In this document: positions 1-8,027 of the stretch, piece after piece | Layout of the letters: the number at the start of each line of letters is the position of its first letter | Position numbering within the stretch: the stretch's first letter is position 1 | IMG/VR virus record: IMGVR_UViG_3300009424_000011 | Location: 1-64,000 of that record | Direction: 5' to 3' (one strand) | DNA: 64,000 nucleotides | From: a virus | Taxonomy: Duplodnaviria > Caudoviricetes | Notes under the pieces: model-generated | The model's input: the letters and a program-made list of their open reading frames with translations, nothing else | Told to the model about the DNA's origin: nothing | Databases searched by the model: none | Position numbers and translations under genes: made by a program

Positions 1-990
1 ATAGCGCTCCTTCCACTCGTTGATGGCATCCTTCTGGGAACCACCACGCTTGGCGAAGACGAAAGCTTCCTTGAGCGGGAACACCGCCCGGAACTTGGGC
101 ATCGGCTTGTGCTTGACGAGGATGACCACACCCTCTTCGGTGTGGTGGGCGTCGTCGATGATCTCCAGATCGTCAACGATCTGAGGCAAAGTGCCCTTGA
201 CCTTGATCAGGTAATCGCGAACAGCCTCTTCATCAACCTCACCTTCCTCGTTCCACTTGATGAAGTGGTCGCGCTTGATGACACTGGTGTCCTTGAGGTG
301 GCTGTGAGTCGTGTAGATGACGGCTTCCAGACCATACTTCTGGATGGTCTCCATCACATCCGTCAAGGGAGCGCCCGAATCGAGATCGACCCCAAGGATG
401 TGGTTCTCGATCATGGCAACAGCTTTGCGAGCGCCGTTGGCCGACTTCCCTTGTAAGAAGCAGGGACCGTCTTTCTGCCCTTCCTTGTGATCTTGCAGCA
501 CAGTTTCGAACTGGCCGAAGGTGCTGGAAATCTCTTTCCACTTGCCTTGGCCTTCGTCGCGGCGACGACCAGTCATGAGGGTGATCTGGCGATCCGATCC
601 CGGCGTTTTCAGGTCGAGGTCTTCCGGGAGATACCAGTTCAACCCGTCGAAGTCAGGCTTGCCCTTATGCATGAAGACGCTGAGAGGGCACATATGCAGG
701 CCCTGCTTCATGCCGGGGATCGGATCACCGTCGATCATGTAGATCATTCCGCCATCGACATCGAAGGACGGCTGAGGAACGACGACTTCCGGGTTACCAG
801 CTACGAAGACGCCCACGGCAAAGCCTTCGTCGGTGACGAGATCAATCCACGGGTCATCGGCATGGGAAGCGAACGCACCGACTTCGAGAAGGTCATCGCT
901 GGTGATATAGCTCCCGTCGGCTGCTTCGACGGTGACGGCTCCAGATGCACGACCCATCAGGTCGTGAATGAGTTGGGTGTAGGGGGTCAT
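1..990 (-). CDS. AEP-family primase/polymerase (N-terminal part; runs off the window edge)
   Basis: Missing from the ORF track; hand-translated from ATG 990: MTPYTQLIHDL...HILGVDLDSG...VIYTTHSH...KFRAVFPL, matching AEP motifs (DxD, YTTHSH, RxxxPL). Confidence 0.75.
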   Translation of the reverse strand, partial: MTPYTQLIHDLMGRASGAVTVEAADGSYITSDDLLEVGAFASHADDPWIDLVTDEGFAVGVFVAGNPEVVVPQPSFDVDGGMIYMIDGDPIPGMKQGLHMCPLSVFMHKGKPDFDGLNWYLPEDLDLKTPGSDRQITLMTGRRRDEGQGKWKEISSTFGQFETVLQDHKEGQKDGPCFLQGKSANGARKAVAMIENHILGVDLDSGAPLTDVMETIQKYGLEAVIYTTHSHLKDTSVIKRDHFIKWNEEGEVDEEAVRDYLIKVKGTLPQIVDDLEIIDDAHHTEEGVVILVKHKPMPKFRAVFPLKEAFVFAKRGGSQKDAINEWKERY

Positions 991-998
991 TGGTGACC

Positions 999-1445
999 TT
1001 ATGCTGTGAGGGAAAAGGACAGGCTGGTCACCGGGCCGCCTGTGTTCTTATCGTGCTTGGATGCCGCTTCGACGGCTTCCTCAGCGGAGGCTCCATGAGC
1101 CATGGCACCTAGCGCCAGTAGAGCGCCAGAACCGATTGCGGTGTAATCGGCAAAGATGGGGAGTAGATAACCGTTATCGAACTCGAAGAGATCGCCGGTG
1201 GTGTTGTCGATGATCAGGGCCGAGAAGTCGTTACCGTGATCGAGCAGAACTTGAGGAACGTCATCCTCAGGGCAACCACCAGCACACCAAGCTTCCAGAG
1301 GTCGTCGAAGCCATGCCGGACCAGCGAGGGCAACGGTGAACCCACCACACTTGGCGATCTTCTCGCGGGAGCCGTTGGTGATACTGGTGTAGGAGATCAA
1401 TGTATCGGCAGCCAGCAGGCCCGAGCGGTAAGCTATGGTCGTCAT
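999..1445 (-). CDS. Ntn-hydrolase, HslV/proteasome-beta-like peptidase
   Basis: N-terminal MTTIA, AADT, IGSG and D..TGG motifs. Confidence 0.7.
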   Translation of the reverse strand: MTTIAYRSGLLAADTLISYTSITNGSREKIAKCGGFTVALAGPAWLRRPLEAWCAGGCPEDDVPQVLLDHGNDFSALIIDNTTGDLFEFDNGYLLPIFADYTAIGSGALLALGAMAHGASAEEAVEAASKHDKNTGGPVTSLSFSLTA

Positions 1446-1569
1446 GTAGCGCTATCTCCAGAAGAGCGCCATGGTTAAGCTAGAATTGCCGTCATGTCAA
1501 GCAAGAATGTCGCACCTTGGACACACTGGACGGTTGTGGACAGCTACGGACGAAAATAATTTCCGCATG

Positions 1570-1605
1570 AATCGAAAGGCCCGGCCATCTTGCGACGGCC
1601 GGGCC
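1570..1605 (-). terminator. Intrinsic terminator
   Basis: Minus strand GGCCCGGCCGTC-GCAA-GATGGCCGGGCC followed by TTTCGATT. Confidence 0.7.
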
Positions 1606-1606
1606 A

Positions 1607-1776
1607 ATGCCGGGAGCTTCACAGCGAGTTGGAGACAGACCTTCATCTCCCGGCGGTAACTGGCGGGGGCCGGGCTACGAACCCGTCCACACGATCCTCA
1701 ACAATCCTCCGGGCACCCGGCGATCTCTTCTCGTGCTTCGGCCACTGGTTAAGGCCACTTCCCCGATAAACTCGAT
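1607..1776 (-). ncRNA. Putative structured ncRNA
   Basis: Lies between promoter 1783-1811 and a terminator; no convincing ORF; contains GGGTTCGTAGCCC...CCCCGCCA and a GCCGGGAG/CTCCCGGC stem. Confidence 0.45.
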
Positions 1777-1782
1777 GACAAA

Positions 1783-1811
1783 CAAATAGGATGATTCGTC
1801 CGGTTCGTCAA
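1783..1811 (-). promoter_or_regulatory. sigma70-like promoter with GANTC in the spacer
   Basis: TTGACG-17-TATTTG; spacer contains CGAATCA. Confidence 0.6.
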
Positions 1812-1821
1812 TAACTATTTT

Positions 1822-2013
1822 ACATCTCTTTCGCCAACGCCCCGACGTTTGGGCTGGGATTCGAACCCAGACGCCCGCGCCTTCCCACCATGGCTAGGAG
1901 GTTTACATCCCCCTGTTCCGGATTCGAACCAGAATATCAGCCGGGCCGCTCAGCCGTGACCCTCGCTTTCGACCGCCTAGAACAGTAGGACGAGACGTTG
2001 GCGAAAAAGATGT
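1822..2013 (-). ncRNA. Structured ncRNA with a 23-bp closing stem and two T-loops
   Basis: ACATCTTTTTCGCCAACGTCTCG pairs with CGGGGCGTTGGCGAAAGAGATGT (G-U pairs favour minus strand); two GGTTCGAATCC hairpins inside. Confidence 0.65.
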
Positions 2014-2014
2014 T

Positions 2015-2406
2015 GTCCCGAAACTGTTGCTACGCTCGGGACCACGCGCCACCTAGAGGTGTGAGGCCCTAGGGATTTTGTCGCTTACGCGGCGAGACGA
2101 ATCTCTTCGCTGGCGACGACCACATCATTGTCGTTGACAGTTGATGAATTTGATCCGCATACGGGCGGTATCTAAACGGGGCGCTTCTCCACATCGGCCT
2201 TACGGATCGATCCTAAATTCACCCCCATCAAAGAACCCCGCTGCCTTACAAAGGACCGTCGTCCAGAGCCTAGGCGGATCGTCACCCTGACCGCGTTTCA
2301 GGCGGCCGCAGGGGTCTTTGGTGGAGGTGCCGAGTTCTGCCCTCGGGTCTCCGCTTGACTTAGATGGCCTTCTACGACCGTAGTCTTCATGCCGAAGCAC
2401 TTGACG
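2015..2406 (-). ncRNA. ssrA: Two-piece (circularly permuted) tmRNA; tag (A)VNDNDVVVASEEIRLAA
   Basis: Acceptor piece ends GACCCGAGGGCAGAACTCGGCACCTCCACCA at 2319; intervening hairpin 2227-2318; coding piece starts GGGGGTG at 2226 with G3-U70; tag ORF 2138-2085 ends LAA-stop. Confidence 0.93.
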
Positions 2407-2412
2407 AGGAGA

Positions 2413-2441
2413 AGAATAAGCGATTCGCACATCACTGTCAA
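2413..2441 (-). promoter_or_regulatory. tmRNA promoter with GANTC
   Basis: TTGACA-17-TATTCT; spacer contains CGAATCG. Confidence 0.75.
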
Positions 2442-2466
2442 CTGAAAATTGAGAGCGCGTCGAAAA

Positions 2467-3045
2467 TCAGAGATAGGGCGAGGGCGAAGTCACCTTGACG
2501 CTGGCAACAAAGAGCGGTTGCGAAATGGCCGACAGCCGGTCAGCGAGGGCTCGCGAATCGATCACGAAGCGCGGCGATCGTGAACTGTATCCGGCCAGAA
2601 ACTCTGCTTCCGACAGAAGCTCTACGTCGGTCGCAGAGTGGAAGCGCATCTGGCGCTTGGCCGAGCCCGAGTGACAGCCAAGGGTGGTGGCAACGAAATC
2701 ATTGACCTTCGATTGCTCGCCGAAGAGGCTGGCGAAGAATCGGTTCTGTTCCTCAGGAGTGGCGTTGACGGTCCAGTTGTCCACATTCCGCCCCAGAACC
2801 ATGAGAGCCCCGGTCCGCAGACCCGGAAGCCAAGAACCAACCACGTTGCGTTCGACACCGAAGTCGGCCGCTGTGGAGTGAACCATCATGTTGAGAGCGC
2901 CGGAGACATCCACGGTCACCATCTGTCCGGTCAAGCCGGGCCATCCACTGTAAGAGGCGAAACGCTCAACGTCCTGCGAACTCTTACCAAGCAAGCGCTG
3001 TAGCTGGCTGATGCCGAATGTTTGCTGGCGAGCAGAAAATTCCAT
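2467..3045 (-). CDS. Hypothetical protein, possible N-terminal HTH
   Basis: 192-aa ORF with GGTGGA RBS and its own TTGACA promoter near 3080-3106. Confidence 0.6.
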   Translation of the reverse strand: MEFSARQQTFGISQLQRLLGKSSQDVERFASYSGWPGLTGQMVTVDVSGALNMMVHSTAADFGVERNVVGSWLPGLRTGALMVLGRNVDNWTVNATPEEQNRFFASLFGEQSKVNDFVATTLGCHSGSAKRQMRFHSATDVELLSEAEFLAGYSSRSPRFVIDSRALADRLSAISQPLFVASVKVTSPSPYL

Positions 3046-3113
3046 TAGTTATTCCACCTACATTTTTGAGAGACACATCGTTAAGATAAAAGCCAACGAT
3101 TGTCAATCGAAAA

Positions 3114-3449
3114 TTACGGTGTGGCGGGAGAGGTAGGAATCGAACCCACGTCAGCGGGTTTGGAATCCGCTGTCTTACCATTAGACGACACTCCCATAGT
3201 GCCAACCCGACCGCGAAGATAATCTAACGCTTCGGGGAGCCCGGTGATCGTCTGCCGGGCGACCACTGGGAAACGGATATTGATGTGGACGACATCGCCG
3301 AACACGCGGATCAAACCAGCACCGGGAAAACGTCCTCGGCCGGGCCGCCGGTTGTTCCAGCGGGTCCGCTTGTAGTGGGTGAACTCTTCGCCCTCGTGGG
3401 GAACTCCAAGGATCACAGCGCACTCAGCATAAAAATCGTCTACGTTCAT
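3114..3449 (-). CDS. Hypothetical protein whose 3' end reads through tRNA-Trp
   Basis: GAGGTG RBS then ATG; no stop codon before the tRNA. Confidence 0.55.
   Translation of the reverse strand: MNVDDFYAECAVILGVPHEGEEFTHYKRTRWNNRRPGRGRFPGAGLIRVFGDVVHINIRFPVVARQTITGLPEALDYLRGRVGTMGVSSNGKTADSKPADVGSIPTSPATP
3122..3195 (-). tRNA. tRNA-Trp(CCA)
   Basis: Cloverleaf; loop TTCCAAA; CCA encoded. Confidence 0.9.
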
Positions 3450-3463
3450 TTCACCTCATAATC

Positions 3464-3549
3464 TGGAGCCGCCCACAGGATTTGAACCTGCGTCCTTTCG
3501 GAACCTCCGGGTTGCAACCGGGTGCCTTACCAGACTCGGCCAAGGCGGC
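3464..3549 (-). tRNA. tRNA-Cys(GCA) with long variable arm
   Basis: Loop TTGCAAC; U73; variable arm GTTCCGAAAGGAC. Confidence 0.85.
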
Positions 3550-3553
3550 TTGA

Positions 3554-3596
3554 TTGACATATCATGTGAACTAAGCGATTTCACATGATATGTCAA
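3554..3596. repeat. Perfect 17-bp inverted repeat with TTGACA at both outer ends
   Basis: TTGACATATCATGTGAA-N9-TTCACATGATATGTCAA. Confidence 0.85.
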
Positions 3597-3634
3597 AGCA
3601 TATATTATCGGGTGGATATATGCTTCAACGTATG

Positions 3635-3722
3635 TGGAGGAAAGCGGGGGCATCGAACCCCTGACCCCGAAGGGTCACGACAGCGTTCCAAGCTGATTAG
3701 GGAGCCGACCCACGCGCTTTCC
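3635..3722 (-). tRNA. tRNA-Ser(GGA), 8/4 fold
   Basis: 8-bp acceptor GGAAAGCG/CGCTTTCC; 4-bp T stem; loop TTGGAAC; long variable arm. Confidence 0.85.
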
Positions 3723-3730
3723 ATATGTTG

Positions 3731-3818
3731 TGGAGGAAGGTGGAGGCATCGAACCCCTGACCCCGAAGGGTCACCCCGGCTTAGCAAGCCAGTTGAGGAG
3801 CCGACCTCGGCACCCTCC
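3731..3818 (-). tRNA. tRNA-Ser(GCT), 8/4 fold
   Basis: 8-bp acceptor GGAGGGTG/CACCTTCC; 4-bp T stem; loop TTGCTAA. Confidence 0.85.
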
Positions 3819-3824
3819 TCTAAT

Positions 3825-3900
3825 TGGAGCCGTTTGTCGGAATCGAACCGACTCTTCTCTCCCCTACCAAGGGAGTGCAGTCCCAGCTTGCTCAAACGGC
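3825..3900 (-). tRNA. tRNA-Thr(GGT)
   Basis: Loop TTGGTAG; cloverleaf; CCA. Confidence 0.85.
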
Positions 3901-4041
3901 GTTACTTGTTACAACCTCCAGCCATAAACTGACGATCGATCTCTTCGACCACGTTGAACAGGGAACCATCAGGTTCAACCAGAACAAACGTGAACTCCCC
4001 GATCTGCCGCACAGTGCAGCGATGGATCGGAGCTAAATTTT

Positions 4042-4115
4042 TGGATGCCCCTGTTGGGATCGAACCAACGTCTTCGCCTTCAAAGGGCGCTGACTTACCA
4101 TTAGCCGAAGGGGCA
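4042..4115 (-). tRNA. tRNA-Gln(TTG)
   Basis: Loop CTTTGAA; U1-A72. Confidence 0.9.
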
Positions 4116-4165
4116 TCAGGTTGGTCAGTTTGTTCGTCAAGAACTTCCATAACTAACTCCATAAT

Positions 4166-4240
4166 TGGATGCCCGAGCAGGGGTCGAACCTACATTTCAG
4201 GATTCAGAGTCGAGCGACTTGCCAATTAGTCGATCGGGCA
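4166..4240 (-). tRNA. tRNA-Gln(CTG)
   Basis: Loop CTCTGAA; two mismatches in the anticodon stem. Confidence 0.85.
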
Positions 4241-4256
4241 ATTGTTCCACGGCTTA

Positions 4257-4332
4257 GGGGTGACCGGCGGGATTCGAACCCGCCATCTCCGGCATCACAA
4301 GCCGGCGCATCATCCATCTCTGCCTCGGCCAC
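4257..4332 (-). tRNA. tRNA-His(GTG)
   Basis: Loop TTGTGAT; C73; ends CC(T); G-1 not encoded. Confidence 0.85.
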
Positions 4333-4354
4333 ACCTAAACCGTGGAACATTATC

Positions 4355-4429
4355 TGGAGCCGGATGAGGGAATCGAACCCTCGTCTTCGCGTTACAAAGG
4401 CGCTGCTGCTACCACTGAGCTAAACCGGC
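4355..4429 (-). tRNA. tRNA-Thr(TGT)
   Basis: Loop TTTGTAA; cloverleaf; CCA. Confidence 0.85.
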
Positions 4430-4444
4430 ATTGAACTTCATATC

Positions 4445-4529
4445 TGGTGGGTGCGGTGGGACTCGAACCCACAAAGCGGCCGAATTTTAAGTCCGGTGAG
4501 TCTACCAATTCCCCTGTCGCCACGCACCC
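4445..4529 (-). tRNA. tRNA-Leu(TAA), atypical fold
   Basis: Loop CTTAAAA; A73; short variable region; insertion before the D arm. Confidence 0.8.
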
Positions 4530-4543
4530 GTAGCTTGTTGTGT

Positions 4544-4626
4544 TGGTCCGCGATCCCGGACTTGAACCGGGAAGCCTAGGCCACGCCCTCTCAAGACGCT
4601 GCGTTTACCAATTTCGCCAATCGCGG
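4544..4626 (-). tRNA. tRNA-Leu(GAG)
   Basis: Loop TTGAGAG; variable arm; A73. Confidence 0.9.
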
Positions 4627-4634
4627 ATTTAAGT

Positions 4635-4718
4635 TGGTGTGAGCGGGGAGACTCGAACTCCCAAAGCTACCGGGTCTGAGCCGGCAAGGTATACCATTCC
4701 CTATGAAGCCACGCTCAC
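4635..4718 (-). tRNA. tRNA-Leu(CAG), atypical fold
   Basis: Loop CTCAGAC; same insertion architecture as Leu(TAA). Confidence 0.8.
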
Positions 4719-4762
4719 GTAACTCTTATTAAGCTCCTGTATTCACAGGTATTCTCCTAAAA

Positions 4763-4855
4763 TGGTGGGTGACCGAGGACTCGAACCTCTCGCCATCCGT
4801 CCCCCACGTTCTGAAACGGCACCGGGGTTACAGGCCGGCAGGGGGAAGATCACCC
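4763..4855 (-). tRNA. tRNA-Tyr(GTA), rearranged (no conventional D arm)
   Basis: Loop CTGTAAC; acceptor and T arm with ACCA; TCCCCC near the 5' end pairs with GGGGGA after the variable arm. Confidence 0.7.
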
Positions 4856-4867
4856 GAAACTTGTGAT

Positions 4868-4907
4868 GAAACGAAAATAGCGCCAGAACCCGGTGGGCTC
4901 TGACGCT
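4868..4907 (-). terminator. Attenuator terminator, operon C
   Basis: AGCGTCAGAGCCC-ACC-GGGTTCTGGCGCT followed by ATTTTCGTTTC. Confidence 0.75.
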
Positions 4908-4917
4908 CTGAAAATGC

Positions 4918-5014
4918 TGGAGGAGCGAGTGGGATTTGAACCCACGGAACACATCTCTCGATGGTCCAACGGTTTTCGAGACCGCCGCAATAACCCAGAC
5001 TCTGCCACCGCTCC
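4918..5014 (-). tRNA. tRNA-Ser(CGA)
   Basis: Loop CTCGAAA; long variable arm. Confidence 0.9.
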
Positions 5015-5049
5015 TCTTGGAAAGAGAGCAGCGCGTCAGGGCTGCTCCC

Positions 5050-5133
5050 TTAGAAGGGTGACAGGGAACTATACTGGCTATGCCAGCATAGTAAGGAGCC
5101 CGTAAGGCTTTGCAAGGCGGTCTGTGTGAACAT
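5050..5133 (-). CDS. Leader peptide C, MFTQTALQSLTGSLLCWHSQYSSLSPF
   Basis: ATG lies 7 nt after the -10 box (apparently leaderless); 21 of 26 non-initiator codons are Ser/Leu/Thr/Gln/Cys/Trp/His/Tyr, the downstream tRNA set. Confidence 0.85.
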   Translation of the reverse strand: MFTQTALQSLTGSLLCWHSQYSSLSPF

Positions 5134-5140
5134 GCTGCGA

Positions 5141-5169
5141 AGTATATGGAAGGAAGTTAAAGGAGTCAA
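5141..5169 (-). promoter_or_regulatory. sigma70 promoter of tRNA operon C
   Basis: TTGACT-17-TATACT; GACTC overlaps the -35; A-tracts upstream. Confidence 0.85.
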
Positions 5170-5211
5170 CACTTATTTTTGCTGACGGTGTTTTTTTTTT
5201 TGATCTGGGCG

Positions 5212-5281
5212 TGGAGCCCCCGGCCGGAGTCGAACCGACGCCTTAGAGCTTAGAAGGCTCATGGCCCGCCTCGGCGGGGGC
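5212..5281 (-). tRNA. tRNA-Arg(TCT) with truncated D arm
   Basis: 70 nt; loop CTTCTAA; perfect acceptor; CCA. Confidence 0.75.
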
Positions 5282-5288
5282 GGTGATC

Positions 5289-5363
5289 TGGTGCAAGAAG
5301 ATGGGTTCGAACCACCGACGCGTAGGTTTTCAACCTACCGCTCTACCACTGAGCTATTCCTGC
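5289..5363 (-). tRNA. tRNA-Phe(GAA)
   Basis: Loop TTGAAAA. Confidence 0.92.
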
Positions 5364-5369
5364 AATCTC

Positions 5370-5445
5370 TGGTGCCGCCTCAGGGACTCGAACCCCGGTC
5401 TTGGGCTTCGGACGCCCGCGCTCTCTCCAGTTGAGCTAAAGCGGC
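5370..5445 (-). tRNA. tRNA-Arg(CCG)
   Basis: Loop GTCCGAA. Confidence 0.88.
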
Positions 5446-5456
5446 ACTGACTTATC

Positions 5457-5530
5457 TGGTAGCCCTACCGGGGCTCGAACCCGGTTTCTCGCCGTGAAAG
5501 GGCGGACTCTTACCCATAGAGGATAGGGCC
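5457..5530 (-). tRNA. tRNA-Glu(TTC)
   Basis: Loop CTTTCAC. Confidence 0.9.
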
Positions 5531-5538
5531 ATATAAAT

Positions 5539-5615
5539 TGGTGGTCTGCGAGGGAGTCGAACCCATCAACCTTCCGCTTCGTAGGCGGTTGCTCTTCCAG
5601 TTGAGCTTCCAGACC
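5539..5615 (-). tRNA. tRNA-Arg(ACG)
   Basis: Loop CTACGAA. Confidence 0.88.
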
Positions 5616-5634
5616 GAACTCGTAAACTAATTCA

Positions 5635-5708
5635 TGGAGGCCCTACCGGGGCTCGAACCCGGTTTCTCACCGTGAGAGGGTGGACTCTTACCCATAGAGG
5701 ATAGGGCC
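5635..5708 (-). tRNA. tRNA-Glu(CTC)
   Basis: Loop CTCTCAC; near-duplicate of Glu(TTC). Confidence 0.9.
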
Positions 5709-5766
5709 TCATATGGTCATATATGGCACACAAGACGGGCTTGTAGGTCATATCTGACCGGTTAAC

Positions 5767-5875
5767 TGGCGCAGCAGCCGGGATCGAACCGACATCTTCC
5801 GGTTCTTCGCCCGGCCATCCTAGTCCCAGAGGTCATGACACTCTGTCCCCGTTGTCGGGGATTAGACGATACTGC
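5767..5875 (-). ncRNA. tRNA-like RNA with two extra hairpins in the D loop and an 8-nt anticodon loop
   Basis: T arm GTCGG-TTCGATC-CCGGC; GCCA end; 6-bp acceptor. Confidence 0.6.
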
Positions 5876-5879
5876 AAAC

Positions 5880-5954
5880 TGGCGACCGTGACGGGATTCG
5901 AACCCGCAACCTTCGGATAGACAATCCGCTGCCCAACCGTTGGGCTTCACGGCC
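5880..5954 (-). tRNA. tRNA-Asp(GTC)
   Basis: Loop TTGTCTA; G73. Confidence 0.9.
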
Positions 5955-5966
5955 AATAATAAGTGA

Positions 5967-6042
5967 TGGAGCGGCCGGCGGGGATCGAACCCGCGCTGAC
6001 GGAGGGTGGAAGCCTCCCGCTCTACCGCTGAGCTACGGCTGC
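5967..6042 (-). tRNA. tRNA-Gly(TCC)
   Basis: Loop CTTCCAC; U73. Confidence 0.9.
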
Positions 6043-6070
6043 ATCATCACTCATCACTAACAACTTCGAC

Positions 6071-6145
6071 TGGAGCGGGTAGCGGGGATCGAACCCGCGA
6101 CCTTCTACTTGGCAAGCAGGCGCTCTACCACTGAGCTACACCCGC
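6071..6145 (-). tRNA. tRNA-Gly(GCC)
   Basis: Loop TTGCCAA; U73. Confidence 0.92.
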
Positions 6146-6171
6146 ATCTAGTCGTAAACTATTGATATTCT

Positions 6172-6247
6172 TGGTAGACCGAGTGGGGTTCGAACCCACG
6201 ACCTCAAGATTAAAAGTCCCGCGCTCTGCCTACTGAGCTACCGGTCC
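6172..6247 (-). tRNA. tRNA-Lys(TTT)
   Basis: Loop CTTTTAA. Confidence 0.92.
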
Positions 6248-6265
6248 ATGCCAAGAACCAGCCGG

Positions 6266-6304
6266 GAAACGAAAAACGCCCCACCGGGCGACCGGTAGGG
6301 CGTT
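6266..6304 (-). terminator. Attenuator terminator, operon B
   Basis: AACGCCCTACCGG-TCGC-CCGGTGGGGCGTT followed by TTTCGTTTC. Confidence 0.8.
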
Positions 6305-6322
6305 CAAAAATCGATGTCGTTT

Positions 6323-6398
6323 TGGTGGACCTTGTAGGGCTTGAACCTACCACCTTGCGGTTAAGAGCCGCCTGCTCTACCTACTGAGCTAAAGGTCC
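6323..6398 (-). tRNA. tRNA-Lys(CTT)
   Basis: Loop CTCTTAA; A73. Confidence 0.92.
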
Positions 6399-6434
6399 GT
6401 CAAAACGACACCGATAGCTCTACGCACTACCGGG

Positions 6435-6497
6435 TTACGAGGTGAAACCTCGTTCTTCGCCTCTCCGGCGATCTCGTTTGGTAAATCCGTAGGTCAT
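6435..6497 (-). CDS. Leader peptide B, MTYGFTKRDRRRGEERGFTS
   Basis: AGGA upstream; 14 of 19 non-initiator codons are Lys/Gly/Asp/Glu/Arg/Phe, the downstream tRNA set. Confidence 0.85.
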   Translation of the reverse strand: MTYGFTKRDRRRGEERGFTS

Positions 6498-6550
6498 AGC
6501 AGTTACTCAAAATCCTGTTTGGTGGACACTGTGTCCGTTGTTGAAGCCGA

Positions 6551-6579
6551 ACTATATGTGATTCGATTCGTTATGTCAA
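6551..6579 (-). promoter_or_regulatory. sigma70 promoter of tRNA operon B
   Basis: TTGACA-17-TATAGT; tandem CGAATCGAATCA in the spacer. Confidence 0.88.
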
Positions 6580-6608
6580 CACAAAAATCACACTGGCGTA
6601 TTTTTAAT

Positions 6609-6785
6609 TTACCCTGCGAGGAGGGGCGGCGTCGCCAATTCGAACTCAGCCCCAGTCGCCGTGGTGGCAATGATCCGGTCACCCTTGGCTTCGATGTCAG
6701 CGACGTTGACGATCTTACCGCACGAATGAGTGATGGTCATACCAGCACCAGCCCGGCGGATTTTCCAGCTATACAAAGTGTTCAT
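6609..6785 (-). CDS. Small hypothetical protein (58 aa)
   Basis: AAAGGA RBS before ATG (MNTLYSWKIRR...). Confidence 0.6.
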   Translation of the reverse strand: MNTLYSWKIRRAGAGMTITHSCGKIVNVADIEAKGDRIIATTATGAEFELATPPLLAG

Positions 6786-6847
6786 GTCGGTTCCTTTAGC
6801 ATGATTGCTTCGGCCGACAATAGGCCAAATTTTGGCCGTGTCAAGTA

Positions 6848-6925
6848 TGGTGGAGCCGGTGGGAATCGAACCCACCTCACAGACCTTGCAAGGGTCCGTC
6901 GCCTTCCCTTGGAACATGCGACCCC
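6848..6925 (-). tRNA. tRNA-Ala(TGC)
   Basis: Loop CTTGCAA; G3-U70; atypical D arm. Confidence 0.85.
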
Positions 6926-6931
6926 AAACTG

Positions 6932-7006
6932 TGGTGCTTCGTGAAGGTGCTGCCCCTCCTACCTCTGCCTTGTCACGGCAGCGCTCTACTGGTGAGCTAA
7001 CGAAGC
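6932..7006 (-). tRNA. tRNA-Val(GAC), non-canonical T loop
   Basis: Loop GTGACAA; T loop GGCAGCA. Confidence 0.8.
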
Positions 7007-7007
7007 G

Positions 7008-7081
7008 TAATCCCGGTAGGATTTGAACCTACGTTTCATCTCTTATGAGGAGAGAGCTTTAGACCACTAAGCTACAGGATC
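7008..7081 (-). tRNA. tRNA(CAT), Ile2 or Met
   Basis: Loop CTCATAA; CCA not encoded. Confidence 0.8.
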
Positions 7082-7083
7082 AA

Positions 7084-7473
7084 TTATTTCTTATACCAGC
7101 CATTCAGGCTCGGATTGTGGTGTTCGATATGGCAATTATGACATAACACAACACATTTGGCGAACTCTTTCATTATAGTTTCTTCTTTGTGATTCGAAAG
7201 CTCTCTTAAAGTAAGCTCGAAACCTTTTGAAGTCTCATCTGTATGATGAAAACACAAAGCAGCTAGATTATCTCTGTAACCACATTCTTCACAACCACCT
7301 CCTCGAAGGTTTATCAACTCCATTTTTCTTTTCAAGCCTCGGGCTTGTTGTTTTTCGTAGAGTTGATTCCTCACATTACCGTTTTTGTTCTGACATGCTC
7401 GTGAGCAAAACTTGGTCTGTTTACCAGTCAATTCCGTTTGGCAAGTCAGACATAAGACGTTCATCTCTGTCAT
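7084..7473 (-). CDS. HNH endonuclease inserted in the tRNA array
   Basis: CxxC...FCSRAC, CEECG, FHH and LCHNCHIEHH motifs; AT-rich relative to flanks. Confidence 0.85.
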   Translation of the reverse strand: MTEMNVLCLTCQTELTGKQTKFCSRACQNKNGNVRNQLYEKQQARGLKRKMELINLRGGGCEECGYRDNLAALCFHHTDETSKGFELTLRELSNHKEETIMKEFAKCVVLCHNCHIEHHNPSLNGWYKK

Positions 7474-7781
7474 TAAAAATCCAAACGAGCGACGTATTTT
7501 CCTTCGCCGATCGTGTCGAGGTAACCATCGCGCTGGGCTTCCCAGCCAAGTCCGCGATCTGCTACCTCTACCGCCAAGAGCGCGTCGCGATTGTCCCGGT
7601 TATCAGCGGTCAAATCCGCTTGGGCCAGTGCGACACCTTCCTGATAGTCCGAGAGAAACTGCCCATCATGCGATCTCGACCAATGTTCCCGGACACCTTT
7701 CCATGTGGTATCAGACGGGCCCGGATCGGTCTCCCGGAGTTTTCGTCCGGGTCGATCGTAGCTGATGTTGTAGCGTTCCAC
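7473..7781 (-). CDS. Hypothetical protein
   Basis: AGGAG RBS; 102 aa; stop overlaps the HNH start. Confidence 0.6.
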   Translation of the reverse strand: MERYNISYDRPGRKLRETDPGPSDTTWKGVREHWSRSHDGQFLSDYQEGVALAQADLTADNRDNRDALLAVEVADRGLGWEAQRDGYLDTIGEGKYVARLDF

Positions 7782-7796
7782 TCACTTCTCCTAAAT

Positions 7797-7880
7797 TGGC
7801 TCGGCGGGGAGGGGTCGAACCTCCGCCCTTTCGGGGACACCGGTTAACAGCCGGGCACATTACCACTCTGTCACCACCGA
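7797..7880 (-). tRNA. tRNA-Asn(GTT) with long variable arm
   Basis: Loop CTGTTAA; U1-A72; G73; variable arm GTCCCCGAAAGGGC. Confidence 0.85.
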
Positions 7881-7888
7881 ACATAAAC

Positions 7889-7976
7889 TGGTAGCGAGAC
7901 CTCAACCTACTGATCAACCGGGAGTGCGAGTCGTCAACTCATCCGCCGGCCGAATGTTCGGTCTATTAGTCTCGCT
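7889..7976 (-). ncRNA. CCA-terminated non-cloverleaf RNA
   Basis: 9-bp stem AGCGAGACT/GGTCTCGCT followed by ACCA; no T loop. Confidence 0.55.
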
Positions 7977-8027
7977 CTTACAGGGAGACTAACCCCTGCG
8001 TCCTCACCCCGTCAAGGGTTTGGTAAC

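Follow-up and report, generated by a model that had tools for sequence, protein, structure and literature searches.

In two tRNA-Leu genes of an uncultured phage, those with anticodons UAA and CAG, the long variable arm is absent and the nucleotides next to U8 (nt 9–12) are complementary to the remaining short variable region, with which they appear to form a fifth helix. At the level of comparative evidence, which does not show the three-dimensional shape, this helix is real. Judged in the same way, the resulting topology is a departure from the cloverleaf that was not found in the literature searched. It is likely that both genes encode working leucine tRNAs composed of five helices, with expression, processing and charging being inferred from comparative evidence only.

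The window (the whole stretch of DNA analysed, 64,000 nucleotides) covers the initial 64 kb of an IMG/VR virus record that is 96.8 kb long and has an estimated completeness of 57%. Its tRNA genes are arranged as an array on the minus strand, from about 3.1 to 10.3 kb, and adjoin a two-piece tmRNA gene (permuted, alpha-type; 2014–2445, minus strand; 75.9 bits with Rfam), which Erythrobacter phage L02 also has. Rfam recognizes a tRNA at positions 6935–7006 (minus strand; 43.3 bits) that is absent from the ARAGORN list. At the DNA level two Erythrobacter phages of 150 kb are the closest named relatives, and two more uncultured contigs, L005 and L265, are nearly identical to the window and have the tRNA locus in common with it. 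The phage is present in aquifer metagenomes and its relatives in wastewater libraries, in all cases as contigs that carry no information on transcripts, RNA ends or charging. The features considered here are listed below; parsing of the two unusual genes was done by a script.

4445–4529, minus strand: tRNA-Leu(UAA), 85 nt with encoded CCA, putative five-helix fold
4518–4521, minus strand: 5′ strand of its predicted fifth helix, nt 9–12, GGCG (partner 4475–4478)
4475–4478, minus strand: 3′ strand of this helix, CGCT, in the variable region
4498–4514, minus strand: D hairpin of Leu(UAA), 3-bp stem and Leu-type loop with AA..GG (preceded by linker ACA, 4515–4517)
4480–4496, minus strand: anticodon arm of Leu(UAA), loop CTTAAAA (anticodon TAA, 4487–4489)
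4544–4626, minus strand: tRNA-Leu(GAG), canonical class II, located between the two unusual genes (ARAGORN; Rfam 47.2 bits)
4635–4718, minus strand: tRNA-Leu(CAG), 84 nt with encoded CCA, putative five-helix fold
4707–4710, minus strand: 5′ strand of its predicted fifth helix, nt 9–12, GGCT (partner 4665–4668)
4665–4668, minus strand: 3′ strand of this helix, AGCT, in the variable region (followed by TT tail, 4663–4664)
4687–4701, minus strand: D hairpin of Leu(CAG) (preceded by linker TCATA, 4702–4706)
4669–4685, minus strand: anticodon arm of Leu(CAG) (anticodon CAG, 4676–4678)

From the 5′ end Leu(UAA) is composed of a 7-bp acceptor stem, T8, GGCG, ACA, the D hairpin, a single A, the anticodon arm, the variable region C-CGCT-TT (lead C at 4479, TT tail at 4473–4474), the T arm and, finally, the 3′ strand of the acceptor, A73 and CCA. 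Its copies in L005 and L265 are identical. Leu(CAG) is organized in the same way, also with a 3-bp D stem. In its L005 copy the anticodon stem shows a compensated change and the linker is altered, with the helix retained, while the copy in L265 has an altered D loop. In both genes a 7-bp acceptor is combined with a 5-bp T stem (a 7/5 arrangement), the T loop reads TTCGAGT, the anticodon stem has 5 bp and its loop the standard 7 nt, and A73 and an encoded CCA are present; both meet the general requirements for a tRNA (U33, purine 37, TTCRA T loop). The segment between acceptor and anticodon stem is 26 nt long versus 17–21 nt in ordinary short-variable Leu tRNAs. Both variable regions are short, 7 nt in Leu(UAA) and 6 nt in Leu(CAG), and lack a local hairpin, so that the long arm of bacterial class II tRNAs (at least 10 nt) is missing, and GGCG/CGCT and GGCT/AGCT provide four base pairs each (G.U, G-C, C-G and then G-C or U-A). 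The sequence-only reading of this locus, which had described the loss of the class II arm and these same two pairings, is borne out; its estimate of the insertion (about 7 nt) was fair, as about 6 extra nucleotides were measured, which lie between nt 12 and the D hairpin, and the expression “new fold” is fair if understood as a secondary-structure topology. It had also taken Leu(GAG) for a canonical tRNA, in agreement with the ARAGORN class II call and the Rfam score. The variable arm of Leu(GAG) is minimal (11 nt), and its stem GGC...GCT, followed by T, has the letters of the fifth helix of the unusual genes.

Neither of the two genes can be assigned to the known structural types. Their parse is not compatible with the cloverleaf, in which there is a single four-way junction, the connector measures 2 nt and the D stem consists of nt 10–13 and 22–25. 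The same is true for type I tRNA-Leu, which requires an unpaired variable loop of 4–5 nt and a 2-nt connector, and for the allo-tRNA or tRNA-Sec-like type, which requires acceptor/T stems of 8/4 or 9/3–9/4. A family was defined by nt 9–11(12) paired with the variable region, a linker of 2–5 nt, a separate D hairpin, a Leu anticodon and a TT or TTT tail preceding the T stem. Both window genes satisfy this definition, and the covariance model of the family (R1) gave them 97.4 bits (UAA) and 94.2 bits (CAG), while ordinary tRNAs remained below about 63 bits.

Since two sequences were unable to settle whether the helix is real, relatives were collected. In a first scan for short-variable Leu tRNAs nearly all matches had normal spacing and only few independent sequences had a long one. 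A scan with TGGC fixed at nt 8–11 found 18 distinct members. This pattern biases the 5′ strand of the helix, and the search was therefore repeated in viral, genome and metagenome collections with open patterns, which fix only the D loop, the Leu anticodon and the T loop and leave nt 9–12 and the variable region free. It was complemented by the covariance model and by a script that accepts any tRNA with long connector and short variable region, irrespective of anticodon and type of D loop. Among the matches listed, a pattern beginning with TGGA gave no members beyond L366 and L285.

The resulting collection has 97 distinct sequences from 111 loci (the window, 30 viral contigs, 73 metagenome contigs and 7 bacterial genome contigs), and all of them carry Leu anticodons: UAG in 64, UAA in 18, CAA in 8, CAG in 6 and AAG in one. 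The member with AAG was found at L285 2271–2354; A34 is unusual in bacterial-type tRNAs except Arg(ACG). Restriction to leucine was also seen from the other side, as credible cases of long connector and short variable region among 1942 cloverleaf parses, made for all anticodons in 4.2 Mb of phage loci, were Leu only. Two or three five-helix isoacceptors are present per array in the window and in L283, L285, L311 and L547. Matches in bacterial genomes belong mostly to Comamonadaceae and otherwise to other Pseudomonadota assemblies, and in every one of them the family gene lies within a dense tRNA array. For instance, contig_4 (1–8000) of Pelomonas sp. Root1237 (L499) has 26 tRNA genes in 4 kb, including a five-helix tRNA-Leu(CAG) at 5126–5209. 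This array is flanked by the C-terminal part of RNA 3′-phosphate cyclase (RtcA), in an ORF cut by the edge of the locus, and also adjoins a gene matching phrog_33734, a phage protein family without known function.

With this collection it became possible to follow the check that the sequence-only reading had itself named, i.e. covariation among homologues, and the three core pairs proved to be kept in 94 of the 97 sequences. The change from G-C to U-A, on which it had based the extra helix, now extends to substitutions at all four pairs. Pair 9 is G.U in 78 and G-C in 18 sequences; pair 10 is G-C in 89, A-U in 4, C-G in 2, U-A in one and G.U in one; pair 11 is C-G in 80, G-C in 5, A-U in 5, U-A in 3 and U.G in one; pair 12, where present, is U-A in 14, C-G in 11, G-C in one and A-U in one. 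A core pair is broken in three members only, namely L336 and L530 (C.A mismatch) and the poorly paired L509. The first two (L336 7117–7201 and L530 2847–2930) are unrelated and have the same C.A at pair 11 together with the variable region NAACCTT; this C.A may be a tolerated wobble-like pair.

Such complementarity could in principle arise without any helix, if these were ordinary short-variable Leu tRNAs with an enlarged D loop or connector, in which the match reflects chance or conserved tertiary nucleotides. Plain short-variable tRNA-Leu are indeed very common in phage contigs (e.g. L003 and L093–L110), with more than 200 distinct sequences in our sample, including those of T5-like coliphages. 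GGC/GCY letters are common to most members of the family, and therefore the covariation rests on about 20 lineages; moreover, in most members the helix has only three pairs, one of which is G.U, and energy models do not favour so short a helix. Against this stands, first of all, the concerted change of both strands, which gives 15 helix types, e.g. GGC/GCY, GGA/TCY, GGA/TCC, GGG/CCT, GGT/ACC, GAC/GTY, GCC/GGC and GTG/CAT. Pairs were counted by a register-aware script and compared with shuffled variable regions under the identical register rule. If each combination of acceptor and helix is taken as one lineage, 65 of 68 lineages are fully paired, while 5000 shuffling trials gave 46.5 on average and never more than 54. 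For the viral subset, pairing was registered in 25 of 26 cases, while 20000 shuffles gave 15 on average and 22 at most. Secondly, GCY accompanies the insertion: it was found in the variable loop of all 17 odd sequences in hand at that stage and in only 15 of 112 ordinary short-variable phage Leu tRNAs, and only 4 of 233 ordinary variable loops could pair with GGC at all. Chance matches are frequent for the GAC/GTY type, to which 53 of the 233 ordinary loops would be complementary. Finally, the stem of the inner D hairpin covaries independently (GG/CC, GAC/GTC, CG/CG, TG/CA, CCCC/GGGG), so the D stem does not need nt 9–12. Taken with the shuffling data, this makes an explanation without the helix very unlikely.

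Two other arrangements were tried and rejected. An outer D stem made by G9G10 and the CC after the D loop, closing a giant D loop, fails because this CC covaries with the inner strand and not with nt 9–12. An intron or another processed insert is incompatible with the size of the insertion, as 5–7 nt is far below that of bacterial group I introns, and with its location outside the anticodon loop.

The same helix was obtained by alignment-based prediction. RNAalifold found it de novo on an alignment of 8 sequences made by MAFFT (A2), where 96.9% of its positions are paired as compared to 25–66% when the partner was slid by 1–3 columns. In the covariance-model alignment of 94 sequences (A4) 96.3% of helix cells are paired, double-sided changes are present in all four pairs and compensated changes in every stem; being model-guided, A4 leans towards the structure of the model. 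On a MAFFT alignment of 28 sequences (A1) RNAalifold did not predict the helix, because MAFFT had set the classes with 2-nt and 3-nt tails one column out of frame. Folding energies turned out to be neutral. The nearest-neighbour gain from the helix is −1.9 kcal/mol for Leu(UAA) and −0.1 kcal/mol for Leu(CAG); when the three standard arms were enforced, the helix was part of the minimum-energy structure in only 9 of 97 sequences, and free single-sequence folds of seven members had no helix and, in most cases, no clean cloverleaf. Thermodynamics, therefore, neither supports nor excludes the pairing.

Functional motifs are preserved over the whole family. A73 is present in 96 and encoded CCA in 86 of the 97 sequences, anticodon loops are normal, and the T that ends the variable region and the AA..GG of the D loop are found in all 97. 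Together with compensation in the stems, these kept nucleotides are the reason for reading the genes as working leucine tRNAs. One can suspect instead that they are pseudogenes or tRNA genes in decay, produced when a rapidly evolving array was rearranged. Wrecks of this kind do exist in phage tRNA arrays: at L001 1847–1932 Erythrobacter phage L02 has a Leu-like gene with class II variable arm, 3-nt anticodon loop and no CCA, which is probably a dead copy. Standard tools are also reluctant to accept the window genes, since ARAGORN makes no call for either of them and the Rfam tRNA model (RF00005) barely admits Leu(UAA), with 29.3 bits at a threshold of 29, and does not report Leu(CAG). However, decay is scarcely tenable, given that 97 distinct sequences share one architecture, that changes are compensated in each of the stems and that the functional motifs are intact.

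It is more difficult to dismiss the possibility that the helix is real while the RNAs do not decode and serve as tRNA-like decoys or regulators, for instance as bait for defence nucleases that cut tRNAs or for LeuRS. Cleavage of tRNAs by host defences is known, as is its counteraction by phage tRNAs (PMC10264068, PMC13096335), and there are no data showing charging or ribosome use of the five-helix RNAs. Arguments against it are the completely standard anticodon loops (Y32, U33, purine 37), the five different Leu anticodons with isoacceptors of the same fold often within one array, and the retention of the 7/5 acceptor/T stack, A73 and CCA. Besides, the phage contig has no tRNAs for UUR and CUG codons other than the two odd genes. 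We consider this alternative unlikely and prefer the reading of the genes as decoding leucine tRNAs.

Bacterial LeuRS reads A73 and the tRNA core and neither the anticodon nor the variable arm. For E. coli tRNA-Leu the identity elements are A73, U8 with A14, A15 with U48 and G18G19 in the Leu-type D loop, while the anticodon is not read (PMC2377443, PMC6614811). Nucleotides corresponding to this set are present in the family, which is a statement about sequence only, as neither formation of these pairs nor acceptance by LeuRS is shown. Leucylation by the LeuRS of the host is, accordingly, an inference. Bacterial LeuRS can charge type I tRNA-Leu, and the Streptomyces enzyme charges both types (PMC6614811). 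E. coli LeuRS charges type II tRNA-Leu only (PMC6614811), and therefore charging by the enzyme of the phage's host is not a given.

Textbooks class bacterial-type tRNA-Leu as class II, and the canonical genes of this class, such as Leu(GAG) of the window, have the same start U8-G9-G10-C11, the same D loop type, T loop, A73 and CCA as the odd ones. The difference is in the variable arm, which in class II forms a hairpin of its own on the 3′ side of the anticodon arm, while in the odd tRNAs only its 3′ strand is left and the predicted partner lies 5′ of the D hairpin. Examples of type I tRNA-Leu include tRNA-Leu(CAA) of Streptomyces coelicolor (PMC6614811), mitochondrial forms and the 77-nt tRNA-Leu(UAA) of T5-like phages (L003). 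They have in common with the five-helix family the Leu anticodon, the lack of a long variable arm, the Leu-type D loop, A73 and the coexistence with class II tRNA-Leu, which the same LeuRS must charge. Unlike the family, they have the plain cloverleaf shape, in which the connector is 2 nt long, nt 10–13 make the D stem and the 5-nt variable loop is unpaired, whereas in the phage genes the D stem is made of inserted nucleotides and nt 9–12 are paired with the variable region. One more subgroup of short-variable Leu tRNAs (L021, L241, L245, L306, L312, L314, L320, L322 and L358) was noticed, in which TAGGCAA follows the acceptor stem, the D loop is followed only by CC, the variable region NATGCT is almost invariant and encoded CCA is often missing. 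It may be another core variant, with GGC able to pair with GCT.

More distant parallels can be found among non-canonical tRNAs. Allo-tRNA-like sequences, mined from metagenomes, share extra nucleotides between acceptor and D stem (PMC7609411), but they have a local extra hairpin on an 8/4 or 9/3 frame resembling tRNA-Sec, while the odd Leu tRNAs have a 7/5 frame and a long-range helix. In the D-armless mitochondrial tRNA-Ser(AGY) the core is built through an interaction of connector and variable region (PMC7609411, PMC9427863), as is proposed here; that tRNA, however, has no D arm and no G18G19 elbow contacts and needs adapted mitochondrial partners, whereas the phage tRNAs retain the D hairpin with GG. 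According to textbooks and to a paper of 2024 (PMC11551756), all known bacterial tRNAs are cloverleaves, and a review on non-canonical tRNAs, covering tRNA-Sec, allo-tRNAs, tRNA-Pyl and mitochondrial forms, has none with such pairing (PMC7609411). No description of pairing between nt 9–12 and the variable region was found in the literature searched, although an older report is possible, as subscription journals were mostly not covered.

The following architecture can be proposed. Standard parts are retained, namely the half made of acceptor and T arm, the anticodon arm, a D loop of Leu type, A73 and CCA; the long variable arm is lost, and nt 9–12, right after U8, would pair with 3–4 nt of the 6–7-nt variable region. 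In ordinary tRNA-Leu the same letters form the 5′ strand of the D stem, which here is rebuilt from 5–7 inserted nucleotides. Since nt 9–12 are paired with the variable region, the helix should enclose the D hairpin and the anticodon arm, and two three-way junctions would replace the single four-way one: the first joining acceptor, fifth helix and T arm, the second joining fifth helix, D hairpin and anticodon arm. The strand from U8 to nt 12 is inferred to run from the elbow side to the anticodon side and the variable strand to return in the opposite way, as nt 8–10 and nt 44–48 do along a normal D stem. Because these are the paths of nt 8–9 and of the variable loop along the D stem, the L shape may be expected to persist together with the elbow contacts U8-A14, A15-U48 and G18G19 with the T loop. 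One possibility is that the helix lies alongside the D hairpin, with the latter still stacked on the anticodon stem; alternatively, the helix could itself stack on the anticodon stem (0–1 nt between them), leaving the D hairpin as a side buttress.

As to its origin, the lost variable arm is the probable ancestor of the fifth helix, to which it would have contributed its 3′ half, as is inferred from the genes of this phage group. Their canonical Leu(GAG) genes have a variable arm of the form GGC-loop-GCT-T, of which the odd genes keep (N)GCT-TT, and GGC occupies nt 9–11 in every Leu tRNA of the group. In the suggested scenario the 5′ half of the arm was lost, its 3′ half then paired with nt 9–11, and the insertion restored the D stem. 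The locus is in flux: Leu(CAG) of phage XM05 is canonical class II, and that of phage L02 is short-variable without the insertion.

Unusual structure makes these genes difficult to annotate. ARAGORN was right for 6 of the 97 sequences, missed 51, assigned another amino acid or none to 23 and misplaced the 5′ end in 17; the Pelomonas sp. Root1237 member was labelled as a tRNA with a 4-letter anticodon, and a member in another contig as tRNA-Lys. If the genes work as tRNAs, analyses of codon supply in phages therefore undercount leucine tRNAs. More generally, a natural tRNA family exists in phage and phage-like arrays, in which the topology is altered while every motif for processing, charging and decoding is present. 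If its members work as tRNAs, then the translation apparatus tolerates a rebuilt tRNA core, the family offers a natural starting scaffold for orthogonal or nuclease-resistant tRNAs, and it illustrates one way in which the extra arm of a class II tRNA can disappear.

Retron-Eco7 and Septu cut the variable-arm hairpin of tRNA-Tyr (PMC13096335), and phage tRNAs are able to escape anticodon nucleases (PMC10264068). By analogy, a tRNA-Leu deprived of the variable-arm hairpin could escape a similar attack. A bolder and, on balance, doubtful proposal is that these are working tRNAs with a core unlike every described bacterial-type tRNA, which were selected for losing the hairpin cut by nucleases, and that the unusual Leu, Tyr and Arg genes of the array represent one counter-defence strategy. 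In that case the fifth helix, rather than base triples, would occupy the space next to the D stem or the place of the D stem itself, and recognition by LeuRS would be retained despite the loss of the hairpin cut by anti-phage nucleases.

Several other elements of the array deserve mention. ARAGORN recognizes at positions 5212–5281 (minus strand) a tRNA-Arg(UCU) of just 70 nt, in which the anticodon is at position 28 and the 5′ half is abnormal; it, too, may deviate from the cloverleaf. A tRNA-Tyr(GUA)-like gene at 4763–4855 (minus strand) was detected neither by ARAGORN nor by Rfam. In this gene only about 10 nt, including TCCCCC, separate the acceptor stem from the anticodon arm, and the complementary GGGGGA is located beyond a small hairpin 3′ of the anticodon arm, being followed by a GG-containing stretch and then by the T arm. 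Its copies in L005 and L265 are identical, and hence this clade gives no covariation. Between tRNA-Ser(CGA) and tRNA-Tyr, at about 4866–4915 (minus strand), there is a GC-rich hairpin followed by TTTTCGTTTCA. The same combination is found at about 1500–1545 of L001 and about 365–410 of L002, so that it is kept in the window, L005, L265 and both Erythrobacter phages, and it looks like a terminator or a processing site within the tRNA array.
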